Of a stretch of DNA of 64,000 nt, positions 4,987-61,749 are shown piece by piece. Both the position numbers and the translations under genes were made by a program. Within the stretch, counting starts at the first letter, position 1. The number at the start of each line of letters is the position of its first letter. This DNA comes from Vicinamibacteria bacterium (GTDB lineage Bacteria > Acidobacteriota > Vicinamibacteria > Marinacidobacterales > Marinacidobacteraceae), in assembly GCA_963668695.2 (NCBI GenBank), contig CAXXLQ010000004.1, forward strand, positions 3,168,001-3,232,000. The letters are read 5' to 3'. A model generated the notes under the pieces. The model saw nothing but the letters and a program-made list of their open reading frames with translations. It had not been told where the DNA came from and ran no database searches.

Positions 4987-6369
4987 CTAGCCCGAGATCA
5001 GACCGAGGAGAACGAAACCGATGAGCGCGGCGGCGGCCCCGATCAGGGCGTACGGCAACTGCGTCCTGACGTGCTCCACCAGGGAGCATCCGGCGCTTCG
5101 CGCAGCGAGCACCGTGGCATCGCCGTAGAAGCAGGCGTGGGAACCGAAGGCGCCCGCGGAGACCAATGCTCCCAGGGTAAGCGGCAGAGGAGCCCCCAGT
5201 TCGCTCGCCAGGCCAACGACTACGGGCATGCTGACCGAGTAGGCCCCCCAGAACGACCCGGTGGCGAATGCCACTCCGGACAGGGCCACAAACACCAGCG
5301 CCGGGAGCATCCAGGCGCTCGCAATCGGCCGCACGCTACCGATGACGAACTCGGTCAATCCGAGCGAAGCGTTCACATCCCGGAGGACGAAAGAAACGAG
5401 CACGATCCCGAGGGGATAGACCATCTTTTCCATCCCGAGAAAGGCGCCGTCGGCGACGGGGCCGAGACCACCCGCCGGACGGACCAGACCAGTCAGCAGC
5501 AGCGCCACTCCCAGCGCCGCCACGACGCCGAACAGCGCGTCCCCACCAAGCGCCAGGGTGGCCGCCGGCAGAGTCAGGATGGGGAGCACAAACGCCGGGG
5601 TACGGAGCCCGGGCCGAGCGGGCGGGCCCGCGGTAGGCGGCGGCTCCAGGCCTTCGTCGAGCGCGGCGGCCTGCGGGACCCTCCCGGAGCGGACGGCCCG
5701 CTCGGAGTCCGCCATCGGCCCGAAATCGCGTACCGCCCCCACGATGACGGCCAGCACCAGCATTACCGCGAACCACGGGTAGAGGAGGTAGGGAATGATG
5801 GATGCGTAGAGACCGATCCCGCCGCCCGGACCGGCGAGCCCGTTCTGCTCGAAGAGCCCGGCGATGAAAACCGTCCAGGTCGAAGCCGGGATCAGGACGC
5901 AGATCGGGGCCGCCGTGCTGTCCACCACGTAGGCGAGGCGAGCGCGGGAAATTCCGATCCGGTCCGCCGCCCCCCGGAAGGCCGCTCCAACCGCCAGGGC
6001 GTTCAGGTAGTCGTCCACGAAGGTGACGATGCCGAGTCCGAAGGCGGCGAGTAGCACCCCGCGGCGGGTCCGGAGCTTCCGGGACAGCGCCTCGCCGAAA
6101 GCGCGGGAGCCGCCCGCGCGGGCAAGGATCCCGATGAGGGCGCCGAAGAGCATCACGACCAACACCACCCAAACGCTCGTCGGTTCGGCCATCACCGACT
6201 GGAGGTTCTCAAGGAAGGCGCCAAGAAAGCCGCCTCGGGAGAGCATCAGGTGGCCGAGCAGCGATCCGAAGATCAGCGCCTCAAGAGGGCGGCGGGTGAG
6301 GACCGCCAGGCCCAGCACCGCAAGGCTCGGGATGAGGCTGAGGGCCCCCCACCCCTCGACGCCGCTCAC
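4987..6369 (-). CDS. Na+/H+ antiporter NhaC-family membrane transporter
   Basis: FVDDYLN, LAYVVDSTAAP, ATGSFWG, FGSHACFYGDAT motifs; multiple TM helices. Confidence 0.85.
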   Translation of the reverse strand: MSGVEGWGALSLIPSLAVLGLAVLTRRPLEALIFGSLLGHLMLSRGGFLGAFLENLQSVMAEPTSVWVVLVVMLFGALIGILARAGGSRAFGEALSRKLRTRRGVLLAAFGLGIVTFVDDYLNALAVGAAFRGAADRIGISRARLAYVVDSTAAPICVLIPASTWTVFIAGLFEQNGLAGPGGGIGLYASIIPYLLYPWFAVMLVLAVIVGAVRDFGPMADSERAVRSGRVPQAAALDEGLEPPPTAGPPARPGLRTPAFVLPILTLPAATLALGGDALFGVVAALGVALLLTGLVRPAGGLGPVADGAFLGMEKMVYPLGIVLVSFVLRDVNASLGLTEFVIGSVRPIASAWMLPALVFVALSGVAFATGSFWGAYSVSMPVVVGLASELGAPLPLTLGALVSAGAFGSHACFYGDATVLAARSAGCSLVEHVRTQLPYALIGAAAALIGFVLLGLISG

Positions 6370-6454
6370 GCGAGTGGGGTTCCGGGGTGCTGGGGGCTAC
6401 CGGTGGTCATAGCGGGATCCTGGGCGCAGCACGCCCCGGCCCGGTGCGCGTGGC

Positions 6455-6799
6455 ACGTTTCGCCCCTGCGGGGGACGATGCCGGCCCCCACCGGGAGAAC
6501 TGGCCAGAGGTCGGCGTTCCCCTGCCCGGCCGCGCTCGGAGTGCATCGGCCGTGAGCGGTTTCGCCCGCGTTCCGGGAGCGATGCCGGTGTGAACACCGG
6601 CGTTCCCCGTACGCGCTGCCCTTCCGGTGGGTCGGCGCATCGCTCTACGCGCAAAAACTGATGGCGGCGAACGCCGTTCGCTGCCCACCAGATCGGGGGG
6701 TGGGTGTGGGCGGGGGCACTCCCCCGCCCACAAGAAGGTAAAGACAAATCGGAACTCGCCGCAGCGCGCCTACGGCGCGCAAGGGAGTTTCGATTTCCG
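6455..6799 (+). repeat. Structured non-coding leader, copy A (homolog at 25690-26013)
   Basis: Shares CCCCACCGGGAGAACTG..AGAGGTCGGCGTTCC, ATGGCGGCGAAC, GAAGGTAA and ATCGGAACT...AGTTTCGAT with copy B; stems show compensatory changes. Confidence 0.75.
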
Positions 6800-7258
6800 G
6801 CGCGAAGCGCCGGGCGGTTCGGGAACCGGGGTGCGACGCCCAACTTCTCTGATAGCACATCGGTACCTGCCCGATCTCTCGTCGCACTCCGGTTACCGGA
6901 ACGCTCGACTCCGAGGCGCGAAGCGCCGGGCGGTTCGGGAACCGGGGTGCGACGCCCAACTTCTCTGATAGCACATCGGTACCTGCCCGATCTCTCGTCG
7001 CACTCCGGTTACCGGAACGCTCGACTCCGAGGCGCGAAGCGCCGGGCGGTTCGGGAACCGGGGTGCGACGCCCAACCTCTCTGACAGCACATCGGTACCT
7101 GCCCGATCTCTCGTCGCACTCCGGTTACCGGAACGCTCGACTCCGAGGCGCGAAGCGCCGGTCGGTCCGGTAGCGGGGTGCGACGCCTGGTCGCCCCTGA
7201 GATCTCCCCATCATGCGACCAGATCACCCCGTCGCACCCCGTTACCGGACCGCGCGAG
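6800..7258 (+). repeat. Tandem array of 116-bp stem-loop units (3 near-identical + 1 diverged)
   Basis: GCGCGAAGCGCC recurs at 6800, 6916, 7032 and 7148; each unit has an inverted repeat CCGGGGTGCGACG / CGTCGCACTCCGG. Confidence 0.92.
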
Positions 7259-8996
7259 GCTCAGGCTCCTGTTGAAGGATGCAGTGAATCCCGCCGCCAC
7301 CCAGGTTGACGGCGATCGCGTCGAGGGCGAGCACTTCCCGGCCCGGAAACACCTCGGCCAGGATGGCGAGTGCCCGTTCATCCTTGGCGCGCACGCTCTC
7401 GGGCATTCCCGCCTTCCAGTATTTCTGGGCCAGGACGAGCCCGTTCGTGATCTGGAAGTTGAGATAGCTCGCGGCCGCGATGACCCGGATCTCGCCCTCG
7501 GGATCGATCCGGGATCCGTCTTCGTAGTCGAGCGGCTGAATGTAGTCGAACACCCCGTCGCCTTTCCGCATCGTGTCGAGAAGGGAATCCGGAACCGGCA
7601 TCCGCACAATCCGGAAGGGGTTGCCGTCCTGATCCGTCGCGGCGCGGAGTCTCCGGAAGCTCTCCTCCAGGCGCTCATGGCTGATGGCGGCGATGGGATC
7701 CGTCTGCCGTTCCTCTTCCGTTATCTCGGCGAGGAGGATGGTTTCCGGGTCGGCAAACCGGGCGAACTCGTCCACGTGACCGCCGGTGGTGATGACGGTG
7801 TAGACGTCCCCGGGGAGCCGGCCGCGGAAGGTGAGTTCGTCTTCCGCCATTCCTTCGGCAAGCCAGATGACTTTGGAGACCCCCAGGACCCGGCGGAACT
7901 CCTCTGCCGTGGCTTCGAGGGTCCACCCGGGATTGCGTTGGAGTTCCACCGCCTCCACCGCGATCATCACGCCCCGGCCGTTGAACTCCCGGGAGCCTCC
8001 TTCGCTGATGAGCGATGACTTCTCGACGTCGAGATCGAGCAGTTCCGCGATGTGCCGGTCAACCGCCTCTTCAAGTCTGGAGTTGGCGCTCTCCGGCGAT
8101 TCATAGCCCCACATGTTGAAGCCGAAGTCGGCGATCCGGAGTCCGCCCCGATCGCCGCGCAGGAAAATGGGCCCCATGTCCCGCATCCAGACATCGCCGT
8201 GGGGCACGCTGTGAATGGTCACGTGACCACCGGGGACCCCCTCCCGCCGGAAGCGATCGCGGATGGCGCCGGCTTCGTCGTCGTCCTGGGCCAGCAGTTC
8301 GATCGCCACCCGACCCTCGGCGGCGCGGATGATTTCGATCAGCAGCGGTTCGGTCGGCAACCCGCGCTTGTTCTCGTAGGTCGGCCACGCCATCCAGAGG
8401 GCCCGGTGGGGCTCGAACTCCGCCGGAAAGACGAACGCCTCCCCGAGCGGACCCATCACCGGTTCGCCACTCGGCGCTCCCCCGCACGACCAGAGTCCGA
8501 GCGCCAGCAGAGCGGGCGGGATTCGTAGCAGCCGGTGGTGAAACCCGGGTGAGCGCCGAGGCCGGGGAGGCCCAGTTCTCCCGGTGGGGCCAGTTCTCCC
8601 GGTGGGGGCCCGGCTGACAAGGCGCGTGAGGGAGGAATACCGAGTGTATTTCGACCGAAACGCAACGATGAGCGGCGCGCAGCGACGCGGGTAACGGCCG
8701 GTGGTGGAACCCGGGTGAGCGCCGAGGCCGGGGAGGCCCAGTTCTCCCGGTGGGGCCAGTTCTCCCGGTGGGGGCCCGGCTGACAAGGCGCGTGAGGGAG
8801 GAATACCGAGTGTATTTCGACCGAAACGCAACGATGAGCGGCGCGTAGCGACGCGGTTCAGCCGGGATGGATCGTCGGCCGAACGCCGCGCGGGTTTCAT
8901 TACAGGCTGTTTGGCCGGGATGGATCGCCGGCCGAACGCCGCCTGGGTTTCACCACCGGCTGCTAGGGCGCTGCGACCGCTAGTCGAACACCACAT
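7242..8996 (-). CDS. aguA: Agmatine deiminase family lipoprotein with an in-frame repeat insertion in its signal peptide
   Basis: FPAEFEPH..WMAWP, DVWMRDMGP, SEGG, GGHVDE, GGGIHCILQQ; lipobox LWSC; ATG at 8996 inferred by removing the 8526-8965 element. Confidence 0.85.
   Translation of the reverse strand: MWCSTSGRSALAAGGETQAAFGRRSIPAKQPVMKPARRSADDPSRLNRVATRRSSLRFGRNTLGIPPSRALSAGPPPGELAPPGELGLPGLGAHPGSTTGRYPRRCAPLIVAFRSKYTRYSSLTRLVSRAPTGRTGPTGRTGPPRPRRSPGFHHRLLRIPPALLALGLWSCGGAPSGEPVMGPLGEAFVFPAEFEPHRALWMAWPTYENKRGLPTEPLLIEIIRAAEGRVAIELLAQDDDEAGAIRDRFRREGVPGGHVTIHSVPHGDVWMRDMGPIFLRGDRGGLRIADFGFNMWGYESPESANSRLEEAVDRHIAELLDLDVEKSSLISEGGSREFNGRGVMIAVEAVELQRNPGWTLEATAEEFRRVLGVSKVIWLAEGMAEDELTFRGRLPGDVYTVITTGGHVDEFARFADPETILLAEITEEERQTDPIAAISHERLEESFRRLRAATDQDGNPFRIVRMPVPDSLLDTMRKGDGVFDYIQPLDYEDGSRIDPEGEIRVIAAASYLNFQITNGLVLAQKYWKAGMPESVRAKDERALAILAEVFPGREVLALDAIAVNLGGGGIHCILQQEPEPRAVR
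8526..8965 (+). mobile_element. MITE-like element cluster M1, inside the aguA 5' region
   Basis: TAGCAGCCGGTGGTGAAACC ... GGTTTCACCACCGGCTGCTA terminal inverted repeats; core GCTGACAAGGCGCGTGAGGGAGGAATACC present twice. Confidence 0.85.
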
Positions 8997-9072
8997 CGCC
9001 CCGACTATACTGAGCCGGCTGCGGTCCGAAGCCGCCTCTGTCGGGTCTCGGAGACCATTCGCACGAGACGAC

Positions 9073-9363
9073 ATGGACGAGAACGAGTTTCTGGGGATCG
9101 CCGAACTGGCGTCGCTCGCGGTGCCTCACGATCCCAAAGACCGGGAGGCCTTCTGGCAGGCGCGCACCGTGCTCCGGGCCTTTGCCCGCCGCGTCACCCG
9201 CATGTCCGACGCCACCCGAACTCCGTCCGGAAGCCCGAGGGCGGGCCAGGCGTCATGTCCGCTCCGTCCCGACGATCCAAAGGGCGGCCTCCCGGAAGGC
9301 GCCGCCTTCGAAATCGCCCCGGAAACCGGAGAGCGTCTGATTCAGGTTCCCCGGGTACTCTGA
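9073..9363 (+). CDS. gatC: Asp/Glu-tRNA amidotransferase subunit C (divergent)
   Basis: IAELASL at the N-terminus, PLRPDDP, APET..IQVPRVL at the C-terminus; directly upstream of gatA. Confidence 0.7.
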   Translation: MDENEFLGIAELASLAVPHDPKDREAFWQARTVLRAFARRVTRMSDATRTPSGSPRAGQASCPLRPDDPKGGLPEGAAFEIAPETGERLIQVPRVL

Positions 9364-11860: not shown

Positions 11861-12303
11861 GCCCCCCGTGGGGAAAGCACCCCGCACGATTCCCGGAACG
11901 GTACGGGCAGCGATTCCGGCGACTTGTGCGCGTGCGCGGCGCTTCCCCCACGGGGGGATACCGCGCATCGCTCCGCGATCCGCGCCATCGTCTTCCGTGG
12001 GGCGGGGAAACCCCTCCCCACGCCCCTCCCCCGCGGCGCTCCGCGCCGCGAATGGACCGCACCAGAGTTTCGCCACCGCACACTCCGTGGGAAAAGCACC
12101 CCGCACGATTCCTGGAACGGTACGTGCGGCGATTCCGGCGATTTGTGCGCGTGCGCGGCGCTTTCCCCACAGGGGGATAGCGCGCATCGCTCCGCGATCC
12201 GCGCCATCGTCTTCCGTGGGGAGGGGAGACCCCTCCCCACGCCCGTCCCCCGCAGCGCTGCGCGCCGCGAATGGACCGAACCAGTGTTTCGCCACCGCCT
12301 GTT
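11861..12303 (-). repeat. Two tandem copies of a 219-bp hairpin-rich repeat
   Basis: CCGTGGG.AAAGCACCCCGCACGATT starts at 11866 and 12085; multiple internal inverted repeats. Confidence 0.9.
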
Positions 12304-20697: not shown

Positions 20698-21588
20698 TAA
20701 CAGCCTGTGGTGAAACCCACGTGAGCGCCGAGACCGGCGAGGCGCCCGGCTGACAAGGCGCGTGAGGGAGGAGCCCCCACCGGGAGAACTGGCCCGGGTG
20801 TATTTCGACCGAAACGCAACGATGAGCGGCGCGCAGCGACGCGGTTCAGTCGGGATGGATCGCCGGTCGAACGCCGTGTGGGTTTTGCCACAGGCTGTTA
20901 ACAGCCTGTGGTGGAACCCGGGTGAGCGCCGAGGCTGGCCAGTTCTCCCGGTGGGGGCGAGGCGCCCGGCTGACAAGGCGCGTGAGGGAGGAATACCTGG
21001 TGTATTTCGACCGAAACGCAACGACGAGCGGCGCGCAGCGACGCGGTTAACAGCCTGTGGTGGAACCCGCGGGAGCGCCGAGGCCGGCGAGGCCCAGTTC
21101 TCCCGGTGGGGCCAGTTCTCCCGGTGGGGGCCCGGCTGACAAGGCGCGTGAGGGAGGAGCCCCCACCGGGAGAACTGGCCCGGGTGTATTGCGACCGAAA
21201 CGCAACGATGAGCGGCGCGCAGCGACGCGGTTCAGCCGGGATGGATCGCCGGCCGAGCCCCCACCGGGAGAACTGGGCCGCGTGGGTTTCATCACCGGTT
21301 GTTTGGCCGGGATGGATCGCCGGCCGAACCCCCACCGGGAGAACTGGGCCGCGCGGGTTTCATTACAGGCTGTTCAGCCGGGATGGATCGCCGGCCGAGC
21401 CCCCACCGGGAGAACTGGGCCGCGCGGGTTTCATCACAGGCTGTTCAGCCGGGATGGATCGCCGGCCGAACCCCCACCGGGAGAACTGGGCCGCGCGGGT
21501 TTCATCACAGGCTGTTTGGCCGGGATGGATCGCCGGCCGAACCACCACCGGGAGAACTGGGCCGCGCGGATTCCACCACCGGCTGTCA
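20698..21588 (+). mobile_element. MITE-like element cluster M4 (two elements joined at TTAA near 20898, expanded right arm)
   Basis: TAACAGCCTGTGG left end, internal CAGGCTGTTAACAGCCTG junction, 71-bp-period repeats; right end overlaps the degP stop codon. Confidence 0.85.
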
Positions 21589-25689: not shown

Positions 25690-26013
25690 AGGTTTCGCGC
25701 TCCCGCGCGACGCCGGGCCCCACCGGGAGAACTGCCCAGAGGTCGGCGTTCCAAGCCGCCCCCGCGCTCCTTCTCGGGCGGCGTGGGAGCGGTTTCCGCT
25801 GTCGCGCGCGCTCCACGCGGTTCGGCAGTACGCGCCTCGCAGGCAGCGCATAGCTGACCGCGCTAAACAAATGGCGGCGAACCGGAGGTTCGCCGCCTGC
25901 GTGTCCGGGGGGAATGTGTGCAAGGGGGGCTCGCCCCCCTTTCACACGAAGGTAACGACGCATCGGAACTTGCCGCCGCGCGCCGGAGGCGCGCAAGGAA
26001 GTTTCGATGCCCG
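25690..26013 (+). repeat. Structured non-coding leader, copy B
   Basis: Colinear with 6455-6799, with compensatory stem changes. Confidence 0.75.
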
Positions 26014-26220
26014 GCGCGAAGCGCCGGGCGGTTCGGGAGGGGGGGCTCTATCCCCTCCTACTCGACAATCCGGACTGATCCAACGATGTGCCCCCGCTCC
26101 CGGAACGCTCGACCCCTGGGCGCGAAGCGCCGGGCGGTTCGGGAGGGGGGGCTCAGTTCCCTCCCACTCGACAATCCGAACTGATCCAACGATGTGCCCC
26201 CCCTCCCGGAACGCTCGACC
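26014..26220 (+). repeat. Tandem array of two 106-bp stem-loop units
   Basis: GCGCGAAGCGCCGGGCGGTTCGGGA at 26014 and 26120, each closing with CCGGAACGCTCGAC as in the 116-bp array. Confidence 0.9.
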
Positions 26221-27027
26221 TTAGATCAGGACAGCTCCCCGCGCCTCTCGGAGGATCTCAAGCAGGGCCGGGTGCAGCCGACCATTCGAAACGGCGATAT
26301 TCGGGCCGCCATTCGTGAAGGGGCCACCGTCGAAATCCGTGACCTGACCGCCCGCTTCCCGGACAATGACTTCGCCGGCGGCAGTGTCCCACGCCCGGAG
26401 CGTCTCCTCCCAGAACGCATCAAGCCGTCCGGCGGCGACCGAACAAAGGTCCAGCGCGGCCGAGCCGGCTCGGCGTACGGCGCGGGCGCGCCGCATGATC
26501 CGGACAAATAGATCCAGTGCCCGATCCATTGCTTCCCGGGAATACGGGAAGCCGGTCGCGAGCAGAGCGCTTTGCATGTCACTCGTCACGGAGACCCGAA
26601 TGGGGTCGCCGTTCAGGTACGCCCCCGCTTTCGCCTCCGCGGTGAACAGTTCTTCCCGGACCGGGTCGAGAACCGCGCCGGCGACGACTTCCGTCCCTTC
26701 CTCGTAGGCGATGGAAACGGCGAAAACCGGAAATCCGTGGGCGAAGTTGGTCGTTCCGTCGAGCGGATCCACGATGAAACGACAACCGGTCTTCGTCCCC
26801 CCGATCGCGCCGCGCTCCTCGGCCAGGATAGGTACCGACGGCTGAAGGCGCTGCAGGCATTCGACAATCGCGGTTTCCGCCGCTTGGTCGACGACAGTGA
26901 CGAGATCGATCGGCCCCTTGAGGTTCACCCCAAAACCGCCCTCCGGCCGCTCCCGATGCGCCTGGCGGATTACCTCGGCCCCGACTTCGGCCGCTTCGAC
27001 GCAGGCCCGCCCGGCCGCTGTCTTCAC
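26221..27027 (-). CDS. suhB: Inositol monophosphatase family protein
   Basis: DLVTVVD, LAEE, IVDPLDGTTNFAHG, RRAGSAALDL, WDTAAG. Confidence 0.92.
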   Translation of the reverse strand: MKTAAGRACVEAAEVGAEVIRQAHRERPEGGFGVNLKGPIDLVTVVDQAAETAIVECLQRLQPSVPILAEERGAIGGTKTGCRFIVDPLDGTTNFAHGFPVFAVSIAYEEGTEVVAGAVLDPVREELFTAEAKAGAYLNGDPIRVSVTSDMQSALLATGFPYSREAMDRALDLFVRIMRRARAVRRAGSAALDLCSVAAGRLDAFWEETLRAWDTAAGEVIVREAGGQVTDFDGGPFTNGGPNIAVSNGRLHPALLEILREARGAVLI

Positions 27028-51062: not shown

Positions 51063-51431
51063 TAACAGCCTGTGGTGAAACCCGCGTGAGCGCCGAGACG
51101 GGCGAGGCGCCCGGCTGACAAGGCGCGTGAGGGAGGAATACCGGGTGTATTTCGACCGAAACGCAACGCAGAAGCACCGCGAAGCGGGGCGGTGAACAGC
51201 CGGTGGTGAAACCGACGTGAGCGCCGAGGCCGGCGAGGCGCCTGGCTGACAAGGCGCGTGAGGGAGGAATACCGGGTGTATTCCGACCGAAACGCAACGA
51301 AGAGCGGCGCGAAAGCGACGCGGTCAGCCGGGATGGATCGCCGGCAGAACGCCGCGTGGGTTTCATCACAGGCTGTCTGGCCGGGATGCATCGCCCGTCG
51401 AACGCCACGTGGGTTTTGCCACCGGCTGTTA
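51063..51431 (+). mobile_element. MITE-like element cluster M9
   Basis: TAACAGCCTGTGG ... CCACCGGCTGTTA; two cores. Confidence 0.85.
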
Positions 51432-61041: not shown

Positions 61042-61749
61042 TAGCAGCCTGTGGTGAAACTCACGTGAGCGCCGAGACGGGCGAGGCCCAGTTCTCCCGG
61101 TGGGGCCAGTTCTCCCGGTGGGGGCCCGGCTGACAAGGCGCGCGAGGGAGGAGCCCCCACCGGGAGAACTGGCCCGAGTGTATTTCGACCGAAACGCAAC
61201 GCAGAGCCCCGCGAAGCGGGGCGGTGAACAGCCGGTGGTGGAACCCACGTGAGCGCCGAGGCTGGCCAGTCTCCCGGCGAGGCCCAGTTCTCCCGGTGGG
61301 GGTCCGACTGACAAGGCGCGTGAGGGAGGAGCCCCCACCGGGAGAACTGGCCCGAGTGTATTTCGACCGAAACGCAACGATGAGCGGCGCGAAAGCGACG
61401 CGGTGAACAGCCGGTGGTGGAACCCGCGTGAGCGCCGAGGCCGGCGAGGCCCAGTTCTCCCGGTGGGGGTCCGGCTGACAAGGCGCGTGAGGGAGGAGCC
61501 CCCACCGGGAGAACTGGCCCGGGTGTATTTCGACCGAAACGCAACGATGAGCGGCGCGCAGCGACGCGGTTCAGCCGGGATGGATCGCCGGCCGAACGCC
61601 GCGCGGGTTTCATCACCGGCTGTTTGGCCGGGATGGATCGCTGGCCGAACGCCGCGTGGGTTTCATCACCGGCTGTTTGGCCGGGATGCATCGCCCGTCG
61701 AGCCCCCACCGGGAGAACTGGGCCGCGTGGGTTTTGCCACAGGCTGCTA
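61042..61749 (+). mobile_element. MITE-like element cluster M10 (three cores)
   Basis: TAGCAGCCTGTGG ... CCACAGGCTGCTA; right end is the galM stop. Confidence 0.85.

Follow-up and report, generated by a model that had tools for sequence, protein, structure and literature searches.

What is the structured sequence that occurs twice within 64,000 nucleotides of a Vicinamibacteria bacterium genome (Acidobacteriota; GenBank assembly GCA_963668695.2, contig CAXXLQ010000004.1, positions 3,168,001 to 3,232,000 of the forward strand; hereafter the window), and what is it doing there? An earlier note, made from the letters of the window, had described two places, 6455-7258 (locus A) and 25690-26220 (locus B), that share an ordered set of hairpins with kept pairing followed by tandem units, and had offered either a non-autonomous element or a guide array as the explanation. 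The hairpins, the pairing and the tandem units are all present at these coordinates. The best reading of our analysis is that loci A and B belong to an interspersed repeat family that is non-coding, modular and high in copy number, and that occurs in one genus and, in diverged form, in a neighbouring genus. We favor, with modest confidence, the view that the element is a BOX/BIME-like repeat, portable and placed at gene ends, which serves the genes that it stands behind or is at least tolerated there. Such a repeat illustrates the make-up of gene ends in a little-known uncultured lineage, with one five-hairpin module directly behind dozens of housekeeping genes and tRNAs.

A modular repeat family with a variable number of distal hairpins

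The genome that holds the window (G000; 4.1 Mb, 67% G+C, estimated to be 91.7% complete) was searched with BLAST and then by iterated nhmmer with the core of locus A (6648-6824) at a cut-off of E<=1e-5. This search gave 107 matches, of which 102 are chromosomal and five lie on a 144-kb contig, and the initial description of a structure present at two loci was thus too narrow. The standard element is about 250 nucleotides long and consists of an A-rich tract, four hairpins (H1 to H4) and one distal hairpin of about 100 nucleotides (H5), in which a constant base carries a variable distal stem and a loop of about 40 nucleotides. By BLAST, the element was found in all 15 other genomes of the genus and in four of nine genomes from other genera of the family, three of them with weak matches and one (G019) with strong ones; none of 16 genomes from two other families of the order had it. 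Upon re-search, G019 yielded 90 BLAST matches with the same module order in diverged form, the H3 stems being recoded and H1 being different. A narrow literature search turned up no description of this repeat family.

The number of H5 units varies among copies. In the 92 copies that reach the 3' part of the core, a single unit is found in 74, none was detected in 12, two are present in five (including locus B), and locus A is the only one with four. Because most copies have one unit and four occur in locus A only, the arrays of the two loci are local amplifications of the H4-H5 block, i.e., extreme cases of a variable-copy module, and the leader-plus-array layout that had been taken as the design of the element does not hold. 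In locus A, units 1 to 3 share 98-100% identity from end to end, interiors included, and unit 4 has diverged; this identity points to a recent local duplication and not to a set of different guides. Partial and whole elements are also tandemly amplified elsewhere, as blocks of H1-H3 or H1-H2 in three to six copies and as whole elements with a period of about 355 nucleotides (C4 295370-296300, 2416947-2417275 and 2007557-2008470), so amplification is not peculiar to the H5 unit.

These observations bear on the suggestion of a guide or CRISPR-like array, in which a leader would be followed by constant repeats around different acquired inserts. The constant flanks and variable interiors have the look of such an array, and by our reading 26 of 63 interiors are unique in the genome. 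Nevertheless, we regard this explanation as extremely unlikely. Most copies have only a single unit, three of the four interiors in locus A are the same, and the supposed insert lies within a single long hairpin, of which the supposed repeat forms the base. The best CRISPR repeat model (CRISPR-DR20) scored 16.8 bits against a threshold of 42; cas genes were not searched for. When the H5 interiors were compared with phage and plasmid collections, no match was found, and against this genome they matched only other units, apart from two 17-nucleotide chance matches.

The copies are unevenly distributed along the chromosome. Of the 107 copies, 38 are crowded into 316 kb (C4 1.93-2.25 Mb), or about 8% of the chromosome. 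The 100 kb of this dense stretch at 2.15-2.25 Mb contain 58 open reading frames (ORFs) of ordinary housekeeping families, including those for glycine cleavage, thymidylate synthase, arginine synthesis and 2-oxoacid dehydrogenase, and none of these 58 ORFs encodes a mobile-element enzyme.

Architecture of loci A and B

In locus A, the conserved part on the + strand begins with an A-rich tract (6653-6658) and hairpin H1 (6663-6685), a segment (6653-6685) that reads on the minus strand as a GC-rich hairpin followed by a T-rich tail and so resembles a terminator. A second, G/C-rich hairpin, H2 (about 6704-6733), is followed by the linker GAAGGTAA (6734-6741), the two together spanning 6704-6741. 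H3 (6746-6796) comprises an outer stem with a conserved G-U pair, an internal loop and an inner GC stem, and the mini-hairpin H4 (6799-6811; GGCGCGAAGCGCC) is nearly invariant. Four H5 units come next (6812-6909, 6928-7025, 7044-7141 and 7160-7258), with H4 repeated ahead of each further unit (6915-6927, 7031-7043 and 7147-7159). Each unit forms a long stem, constant at its base and variable in its distal part, that is capped by a C/A-rich loop of about 40-55 nucleotides. The diverged fourth unit, including its H4, spans 7147-7258.

Locus B follows the same order on the + strand. Its core (25863-26025) holds the A-rich tract, H1 (25873-25897), H2 with GAAGGTAA (25948-25955), H3 (25960-26010) and H4 (26013-26025), and two H5 units (26026-26113 and 26132-26219, together 26026-26219) are separated by a second H4 (26119-26131). 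The two loci align over 487 columns with a mean column identity of 82%. In this alignment, the outer stem of H3 (6746-6757/6785-6796 in locus A) is recoded in locus B (25960-25971/25999-26010) by three compensatory pairs with one G-T pair kept. Tandem Repeats Finder reported a 116-bp period in 3.4 copies at 6799-7187 (97% matches) and a 106-bp period in 2.0 copies at 26013-26220 (94% matches). The earlier note had listed the retained first hairpin, the recoded third stem, the invariant motif behind the G/C-rich hairpin and the two unit lengths with a diverged fourth 116-bp unit, and all of these were borne out. Its leader, in contrast, is not a single structure: 6455-6612 and 25690-25760 are copies of other, far commoner modules, and the region is a mosaic.

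Conserved pairing of the five hairpins

Both loci fold far better than their shuffled sequences, with z scores of -6.2 for locus A and -7.8 for locus B, and none of 200 shuffles folded as well. The + strand of locus A has a predicted energy of -153.1 kcal/mol compared to -140.6 kcal/mol for its complement. For covariation, 40 distinct full copies (alignment A2) were analyzed with an RNAalifold consensus and 500 shuffles. The consensus has 65 pairs in the five hairpins, of which 27 have changed on both sides with pairing kept, and 97.2% of all pair cells are paired, compared to 90.0% in the shuffles and 35-52% when the partners are slid. The number of doubly changed pairs expected is 14.8, and no shuffle of the 500 reached the observed values. 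Covariation among more copies, which the earlier note had named as a check, is thus found, and pairing is better on the + strand, as had been proposed.

The five hairpins differ in how they vary. Most of the covariation is in H5, in which 14 of 20 pairs have changed on both sides, followed by H3 (8 of 18) and H2 (4 of 13). H4 is almost invariant, four of its five pairs never varying, and the primary sequence of both H2 and H4 is conserved beyond what pairing needs.

Position behind genes and a terminator-like hairpin

The element has a preferred position. In 28 of 53 complete copies, the 3' (H5) end lies between -56 and +30 nucleotides, mostly between -5 and +11, from a stop codon or 3' end on the opposite strand, and five of the 28 abutted genes are those of tRNAs. 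The 5' end is equally near a stop in only one of the 53 copies (Fisher p about 1e-9). Loci A and B conform to this pattern. The stop codon (7242-7244, by our own ORF call) of a PAD_porph-family gene on the minus strand (7242-9074; PF04371, E 2.2e-71) lies in the 3' arm of the last H5 unit of locus A, and the stop codon of an inositol-monophosphatase-family gene, also on the minus strand (26221-27027; PF00459, E 3.6e-66), lies 1 nucleotide past the last H5 unit of locus B. The earlier statement that no protein gene is attached was therefore only half true.

Read in the sense of the abutted gene, the order is from H5 to H1 and then to a T-rich tail, with at least five T in 12 nucleotides in 64 of 77 copies; in 41 of the 77, H1 is followed by four or more T in a row. 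A terminator scan of the minus strand called H1 of locus B.

Other repeat families also abut stop codons at places from which the element is absent, as observed in four relatives (G001, G004, G008 and G014; L071-L076, L092, L098 and L099). Because these families adjoin the same stops in other species, a position just behind a stop seems to be common to the repeats of this genus in general.

Gain, loss and retention at orthologous sites

Comparison of orthologous sites showed that copies come and go. Of the 16 genomes of the genus, only G000 and its closest relative, G001, carry the locus B element, and the site in most of the other 14 genomes consists of two convergent genes that end a few nucleotides apart. 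At the tRNA-His junction, the H3-H5 part is present in all six species examined, and H1-H2 can also be recognized in four; behind the stop codon of ssb, H5 is present in five of six species. Together, these findings indicate that copies are both gained or lost and, at some sites, long kept. They agree with the non-autonomous element that the earlier note had listed as one alternative, in that a family of about 100 copies is present or absent at orthologous sites. In places, the element has been kept across species of the genus, and probably across two genera. In a comparison of filled and empty orthologous sites at six loci, the 3' boundary was sharp and the 5' boundary was blurred by other repeats and by divergence.

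At one locus (L111), the end of the same small gene is followed by the element in two genera (near 2216673 on C4 of G000 and near 2206180 on C1 of G019), and both have the flank ...GGCCGCGGGTGGA.TTCTTGAG... on the element strand. The coincidence suggests that the insertion is very old or that one site has been targeted more than once.

Orthologous sites also revealed that H5 is replaced wholesale. At the tRNA-His junction, G000 and G004 are 98.1% identical over 108 nucleotides through H4 and 97.4% identical over the tRNA itself, and their H5 interiors are only 56.2% identical, as is typical of H5 interiors paired at random (median 58.4%). Of the five loci that G000 and G001 have in common, three have H5 interiors too different to align, as judged by eye. 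The version of H5 at the tRNA-His junction of G001 has no other occurrence in the 16 genomes of the genus, so no extant donor was found for a simple gene conversion there. The simple picture of a gene-end repeat leaves this replacement unexplained.

Taken as a gene-end repeat, the element would work as follows. It sits behind a gene on the opposite strand, its H5 end set against the stop codon or the 3' end of a tRNA, and the transcript of that gene would run from H5 to H2 and then into H1 with its T-rich tail, which resembles a transcription stop. As selfish or semi-domesticated DNA, the element would either spread or be exchanged, and it would be tolerated, or kept, for supplying a structured 3' end and a terminator. 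In loci A and B, the H4-H5 block was amplified in tandem, as the number of boxB modules varies in BOX elements. We infer from the sequences that the element may act in termination or in 3'-end protection and that it may be moved by some enzyme or by recombination.

Observations that weigh against a gene-end repeat

Three sets of observations weigh against the view of a portable gene-end repeat. The first concerns its proposed function. The terminator scan did not call H1 of locus A, and the T-rich tail usually begins 4-5 nucleotides past the stem; given this offset, H1 and its tail are better described as terminator-like than as a canonical intrinsic terminator. Gene positions came from our own crude codon-usage ORF caller and from ARAGORN, and at least one start is over-extended. 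In the RNA data (assembled contigs from three metatranscriptome runs and one other run), the flanking genes are thinly covered and the element is covered only by conserved pieces of other copies, these contigs carrying neither strand nor transcript ends.

The second set concerns the strand. By the statistics of pairing, the + strand is the favored one. Cells with G-U and A-C number 140 and 16, respectively, on the + strand, which is opposite to the sense of the neighbouring gene, and the bias persists when the consensus pair of each column is excluded (59 versus 16 cells; 32 versus 15 column-types, binomial p 0.02). In 29 of 40 copies the + strand is also the more stable one. G019 has kept two wobble pairs of the H5 base, in six and five of eight units, respectively, and A-C is absent there. 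Furthermore, the H5 loops are C/A-rich on the + strand, with C exceeding G in 52 of 63 loops. The better-pairing strand is thus not the one that looks like a terminator, and the simple picture leaves this conflict unexplained. From the GC skew, the origin lies near 1.08 Mb and the terminus near 3.06 Mb. The orientation of the element follows neither replichore (107 nhmmer matches), and replication bias therefore does not explain the asymmetry of pairing; by our own tally, the + strand is on the lagging side in 25 of the 40 aligned copies.

One possible explanation of this asymmetry is that structured RNAs are made from the + strand, convergent with the neighbouring gene, with H1 to H4 as a scaffold and the H5 loop recognizing or regulating the 3' end of the facing gene or acting in trans. 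The excess of G-U over A-C, the greater stability of that strand, the wobble pairs conserved across two genera, the G-poor loops and the conservation of H2 and H4 beyond pairing all speak for such RNAs. However, a sigma-70-like promoter was not found in loci A and B, and the sequence upstream of H1 varies among copies. No U-tract follows H5, about 100 copies per genome is unlike known small RNA families, and the H5 interiors, as mentioned above, match only other units. We therefore consider + strand RNAs unlikely.

The compensatory changes could also have arisen at the DNA level by template switching in imperfect palindromes, a process known as quasipalindrome correction, with no selection on the fold. 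All the hairpins are local inverted repeats in DNA, and the many doubly changed pairs of H5, together with the replacement of whole H5 interiors between close species, are in line with such a process. On the other hand, copying of one arm yields perfect Watson-Crick pairing and not an excess of G-U or wobble pairs kept in two genera, and the conserved order of five different hairpins is left unaccounted for. Template switching as the source of the pairing is, in our opinion, very unlikely.

A further possibility, which we think unlikely, is that H5 is an exchangeable cassette and not a decaying hairpin. A strand-specific machine would recognize its constant, wobble-containing base on the + strand, as RNA or as single-stranded DNA, and would swap or rebuild the variable stem and loop, so that every gene end would have a variable, C-rich loop of its own upon a scaffold that stays constant. 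If so, the genome would hold either a dispersed attC-like recombination without an integron or about 100 gene-end RNAs with individual recognition loops. The strand conflict, or the replacement of H5 at sites that are otherwise 98% identical, could each point to an unrecognized strand-specific recombination or RNA mechanism.

The third set of observations concerns mobility. Profile searches of the genome did not find a transposase, reverse transcriptase or recombinase partner for the element. There were no matches to Y1/RAYT transposases (PF01797, E<=0.01), the control search being positive in six of 14 reference genomes, and none to reverse transcriptase (PF00078, E<=0.001). No TnpB zinc-ribbon was above the cut-off, one match being sub-threshold, and the integron integrase model (TIGR02249) drew matches from generic tyrosine recombinases only, the best of them at 79 bits against a cut-off of 265. 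Mobility would accordingly be read from presence and absence at orthologous sites only.

A search for longer copies that might carry a transposase, reverse transcriptase or nuclease, as the earlier note had proposed, led to a single element, which is split between H3 and H4 by an insert of about 650 bp with a G+C content of 54-64% (C4 about 3613589-3613930; locus L122:290-634; near 3.6135-3.6143 Mb). The insert contains an ORF of 114 amino acids with no Pfam match, which could be a captured or inserted orphan gene; as it occurs in a single copy and in only one of the 16 genomes of the genus, it is not a mobilizing gene.

These results also bear on the possibility that the element is purely selfish non-autonomous DNA. 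Its hairpins would be recognized on one strand, as single-stranded DNA, by some transposase or recombinase, as in the REP/RAYT system, and its placement would reflect target choice and purifying selection, with no service to the host. Presence and absence at orthologous sites, strand-asymmetric pairing with conserved wobble pairs, truncated and tandemly amplified partial copies and the crowding of more than a third of the copies into 316 kb are all consistent with this idea. The other repeat families that abut the same stops elsewhere would likewise indicate a shared preference for, or tolerance of, this position. However, none of the enzymes listed above was found above its cut-off in a genome estimated to be 91.7% complete, and the orientation shows no replichore bias. 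Moreover, the element has been retained at the tRNA-His junction in six of six species, and a pure parasite would have no obvious need for the T-rich tail that most copies carry. We consider purely selfish DNA a serious possibility, albeit a minority one, and continue to favor the gene-end repeat.

Comparison with known systems

Several candidate identities were checked against their defining features. In a search of the whole window with Rfam release 15 at the gathering threshold, one tRNA was the only match, and at E<=10 the region 6300-7400 gave 10 weak matches, the best with 23.8 bits against a threshold of 70. The opinion that the structure could not be assigned to a known family was thus upheld as far as Rfam is concerned.

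REP/BIME mosaics of enterobacteria and the REPINs of Pseudomonas consist of hairpins downstream of genes, some of them a few nucleotides from stop codons, which are moved by RAYT with strand-specific recognition. Their REP units are 20-40 nucleotides long with a conserved GTAG-type head, and the defining feature of the system is a RAYT gene with REPs on either side. Stop-adjacent REPs reportedly affect translation termination, as Liang, Rudd and Deutscher are said to have found in 2015. The element resembles REP/BIME repeats in that hairpin repeats stand behind genes, in some cases adjoining stop codons, and are built into mosaics. However, its units are much larger and more complex, and a Y1 transposase was not found in the genome. 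A REP/RAYT system was rejected on these grounds: no Y1 transposase was found, and about 250 nucleotides with five different hairpins are not a palindrome of 20-40 nucleotides. REP palindromes often come in inverted pairs, but only one head-to-head pair was noted among the nhmmer matches (C4 2080828 and 2080945).

The attC sites of integrons are 60-140 nucleotides long and lie directly behind stop codons, with a conserved base, a variable center and a structure that outlasts the sequence. H5 is similar to attC in its length, its constant base and variable center, its position next to stop codons and in that its better-folding strand is opposite to the sense of the gene. Unlike in attC, the R''/R' consensus was not seen at the ends of H5 (by eye), and the copies are dispersed behind housekeeping genes and tRNAs. 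As there is no integron integrase above the cut-off in the genome and the scattered copies do not form a cassette array, an integron attC was also rejected.

Several further candidates were set aside. IS630-type transposases are present in the genome, and the inverted repeats of an IS630-type copy begin TCCTAGTGTCGTG...; by eye, they are unlike the ends of the element, which speaks against a miniature inverted-repeat transposable element of the resident IS630. A repeat derived from a retroelement (a group II intron, a retron or a repeat linked to a diversity-generating retroelement) was rejected because no reverse transcriptase was found. With about 12 matches truncated at the 5' end and about 12 at the 3' end by our reading, there is no bias for the 5' truncation expected of target-primed reverse transcription. 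A CRISPR array was rejected on the evidence given above, and a small peptide starting from an ATG at H1 was rejected because, by eye, some copies lack the ATG and differences in loop length put the copies out of frame with one another.

Because the features that define REP/RAYT systems, CRISPR arrays, attC sites and Rfam families were not found here, the element is best classified, by analogy, as a new repeat family of a known kind, that of BOX and BIME repeats, and not as a member of a named family.

Its nearest analogues are the BOX elements and SPRITE repeats of pneumococci, with REP/BIME/REPIN repeats as a further one. Pneumococcal BOX elements are composed of boxA, a variable number of boxB and boxC, and occur in about 100 copies per genome in a narrow group of species (PMC3049150). 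As in the element described here, a modular composite has one module in variable tandem number, the copy number is about 100, and the taxonomic group is narrow (PMC3049150). Further points of likeness in that source are the extensive predicted stem-loops, the clustering with and insertion into other repeat families and the over-representation between convergent genes (PMC3049150). The unit counts of the present element (0, 1, 2 and 4 in 12, 74, 5 and 1 of the 92 copies, respectively) are those of a BOX-like variable module, which is an analogy and not homology. There are also differences. The two are unrelated in sequence. The ends of BOX are terminal inverted repeats that pair together (PMC3049150), whereas the element consists of five local hairpins in series. 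The element also differs in its amplified module, a hairpin of about 100 nucleotides with a hypervariable interior, and in having one end that closely abuts the stop codon.

A comparable case in S. pneumoniae is SPRITE, which has been proposed to be a co-opted terminator (PMC3049150). Like the element, SPRITE is described there as dispersed, ending in a stem with a U-rich tract and enriched near the 3' ends of genes (PMC3049150). In contrast, SPRITE is a single 18-bp duplex with a tail (PMC3049150), whereas the terminator-like hairpin here is the last of five modules and its T-rich tail is offset by about 4-5 nucleotides.

Neighboring features and other repeats

Outside the conserved core, other modules accompany the two loci on the + strand. 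An upstream P-type hairpin module of locus A (6455-6522; GATGCCGG...GGCGTTCC) carries an 18-mer, CCCCACCGGGAGAACTGG (6486-6503), in its loop and belongs to other, far commoner repeat families; a second copy of the module lies at 6556-6608. The P-type module that precedes the core of locus B (25690-25760) likewise holds the 18-mer in its loop. The P module and the 18-mer each have many separate BLAST matches genome-wide, and in many copies the P module ends about 45 nucleotides upstream of the core. On the other side of locus A, a minus-strand gene of the Na+/H+ antiporter family (4987-6369; PF03553, E 2.3e-25) has its start towards the repeat cluster.

The 18-mer or its complement occurs singly, doubled or within the loop of a P module; in the window it is found at 6486-6503 and 25718-25735, also at 8572-8607, 21094-21129 and 61088-61123 and at other positions. 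It behaves like a tiny insertion inside another repeat. The 18-mer or its partner motif is also contained in tandem arrays that have periods of 71 and 53 nucleotides.

These genomes have an unusually large share of non-coding DNA, much of which is explained by repeats of this kind. Anyone looking for RNA genes or CRISPR arrays will be misled by the repeats, and assemblies break at them. By the crude caller, ORF coverage of the chromosome is about 74%, a low value for a bacterium. Other large tandem or dispersed repeats in the window lie at 11866-12298, 8531-8856, 51064-51303 and 61106-61445, with periods of 219, 166, 131 and 178 nucleotides.

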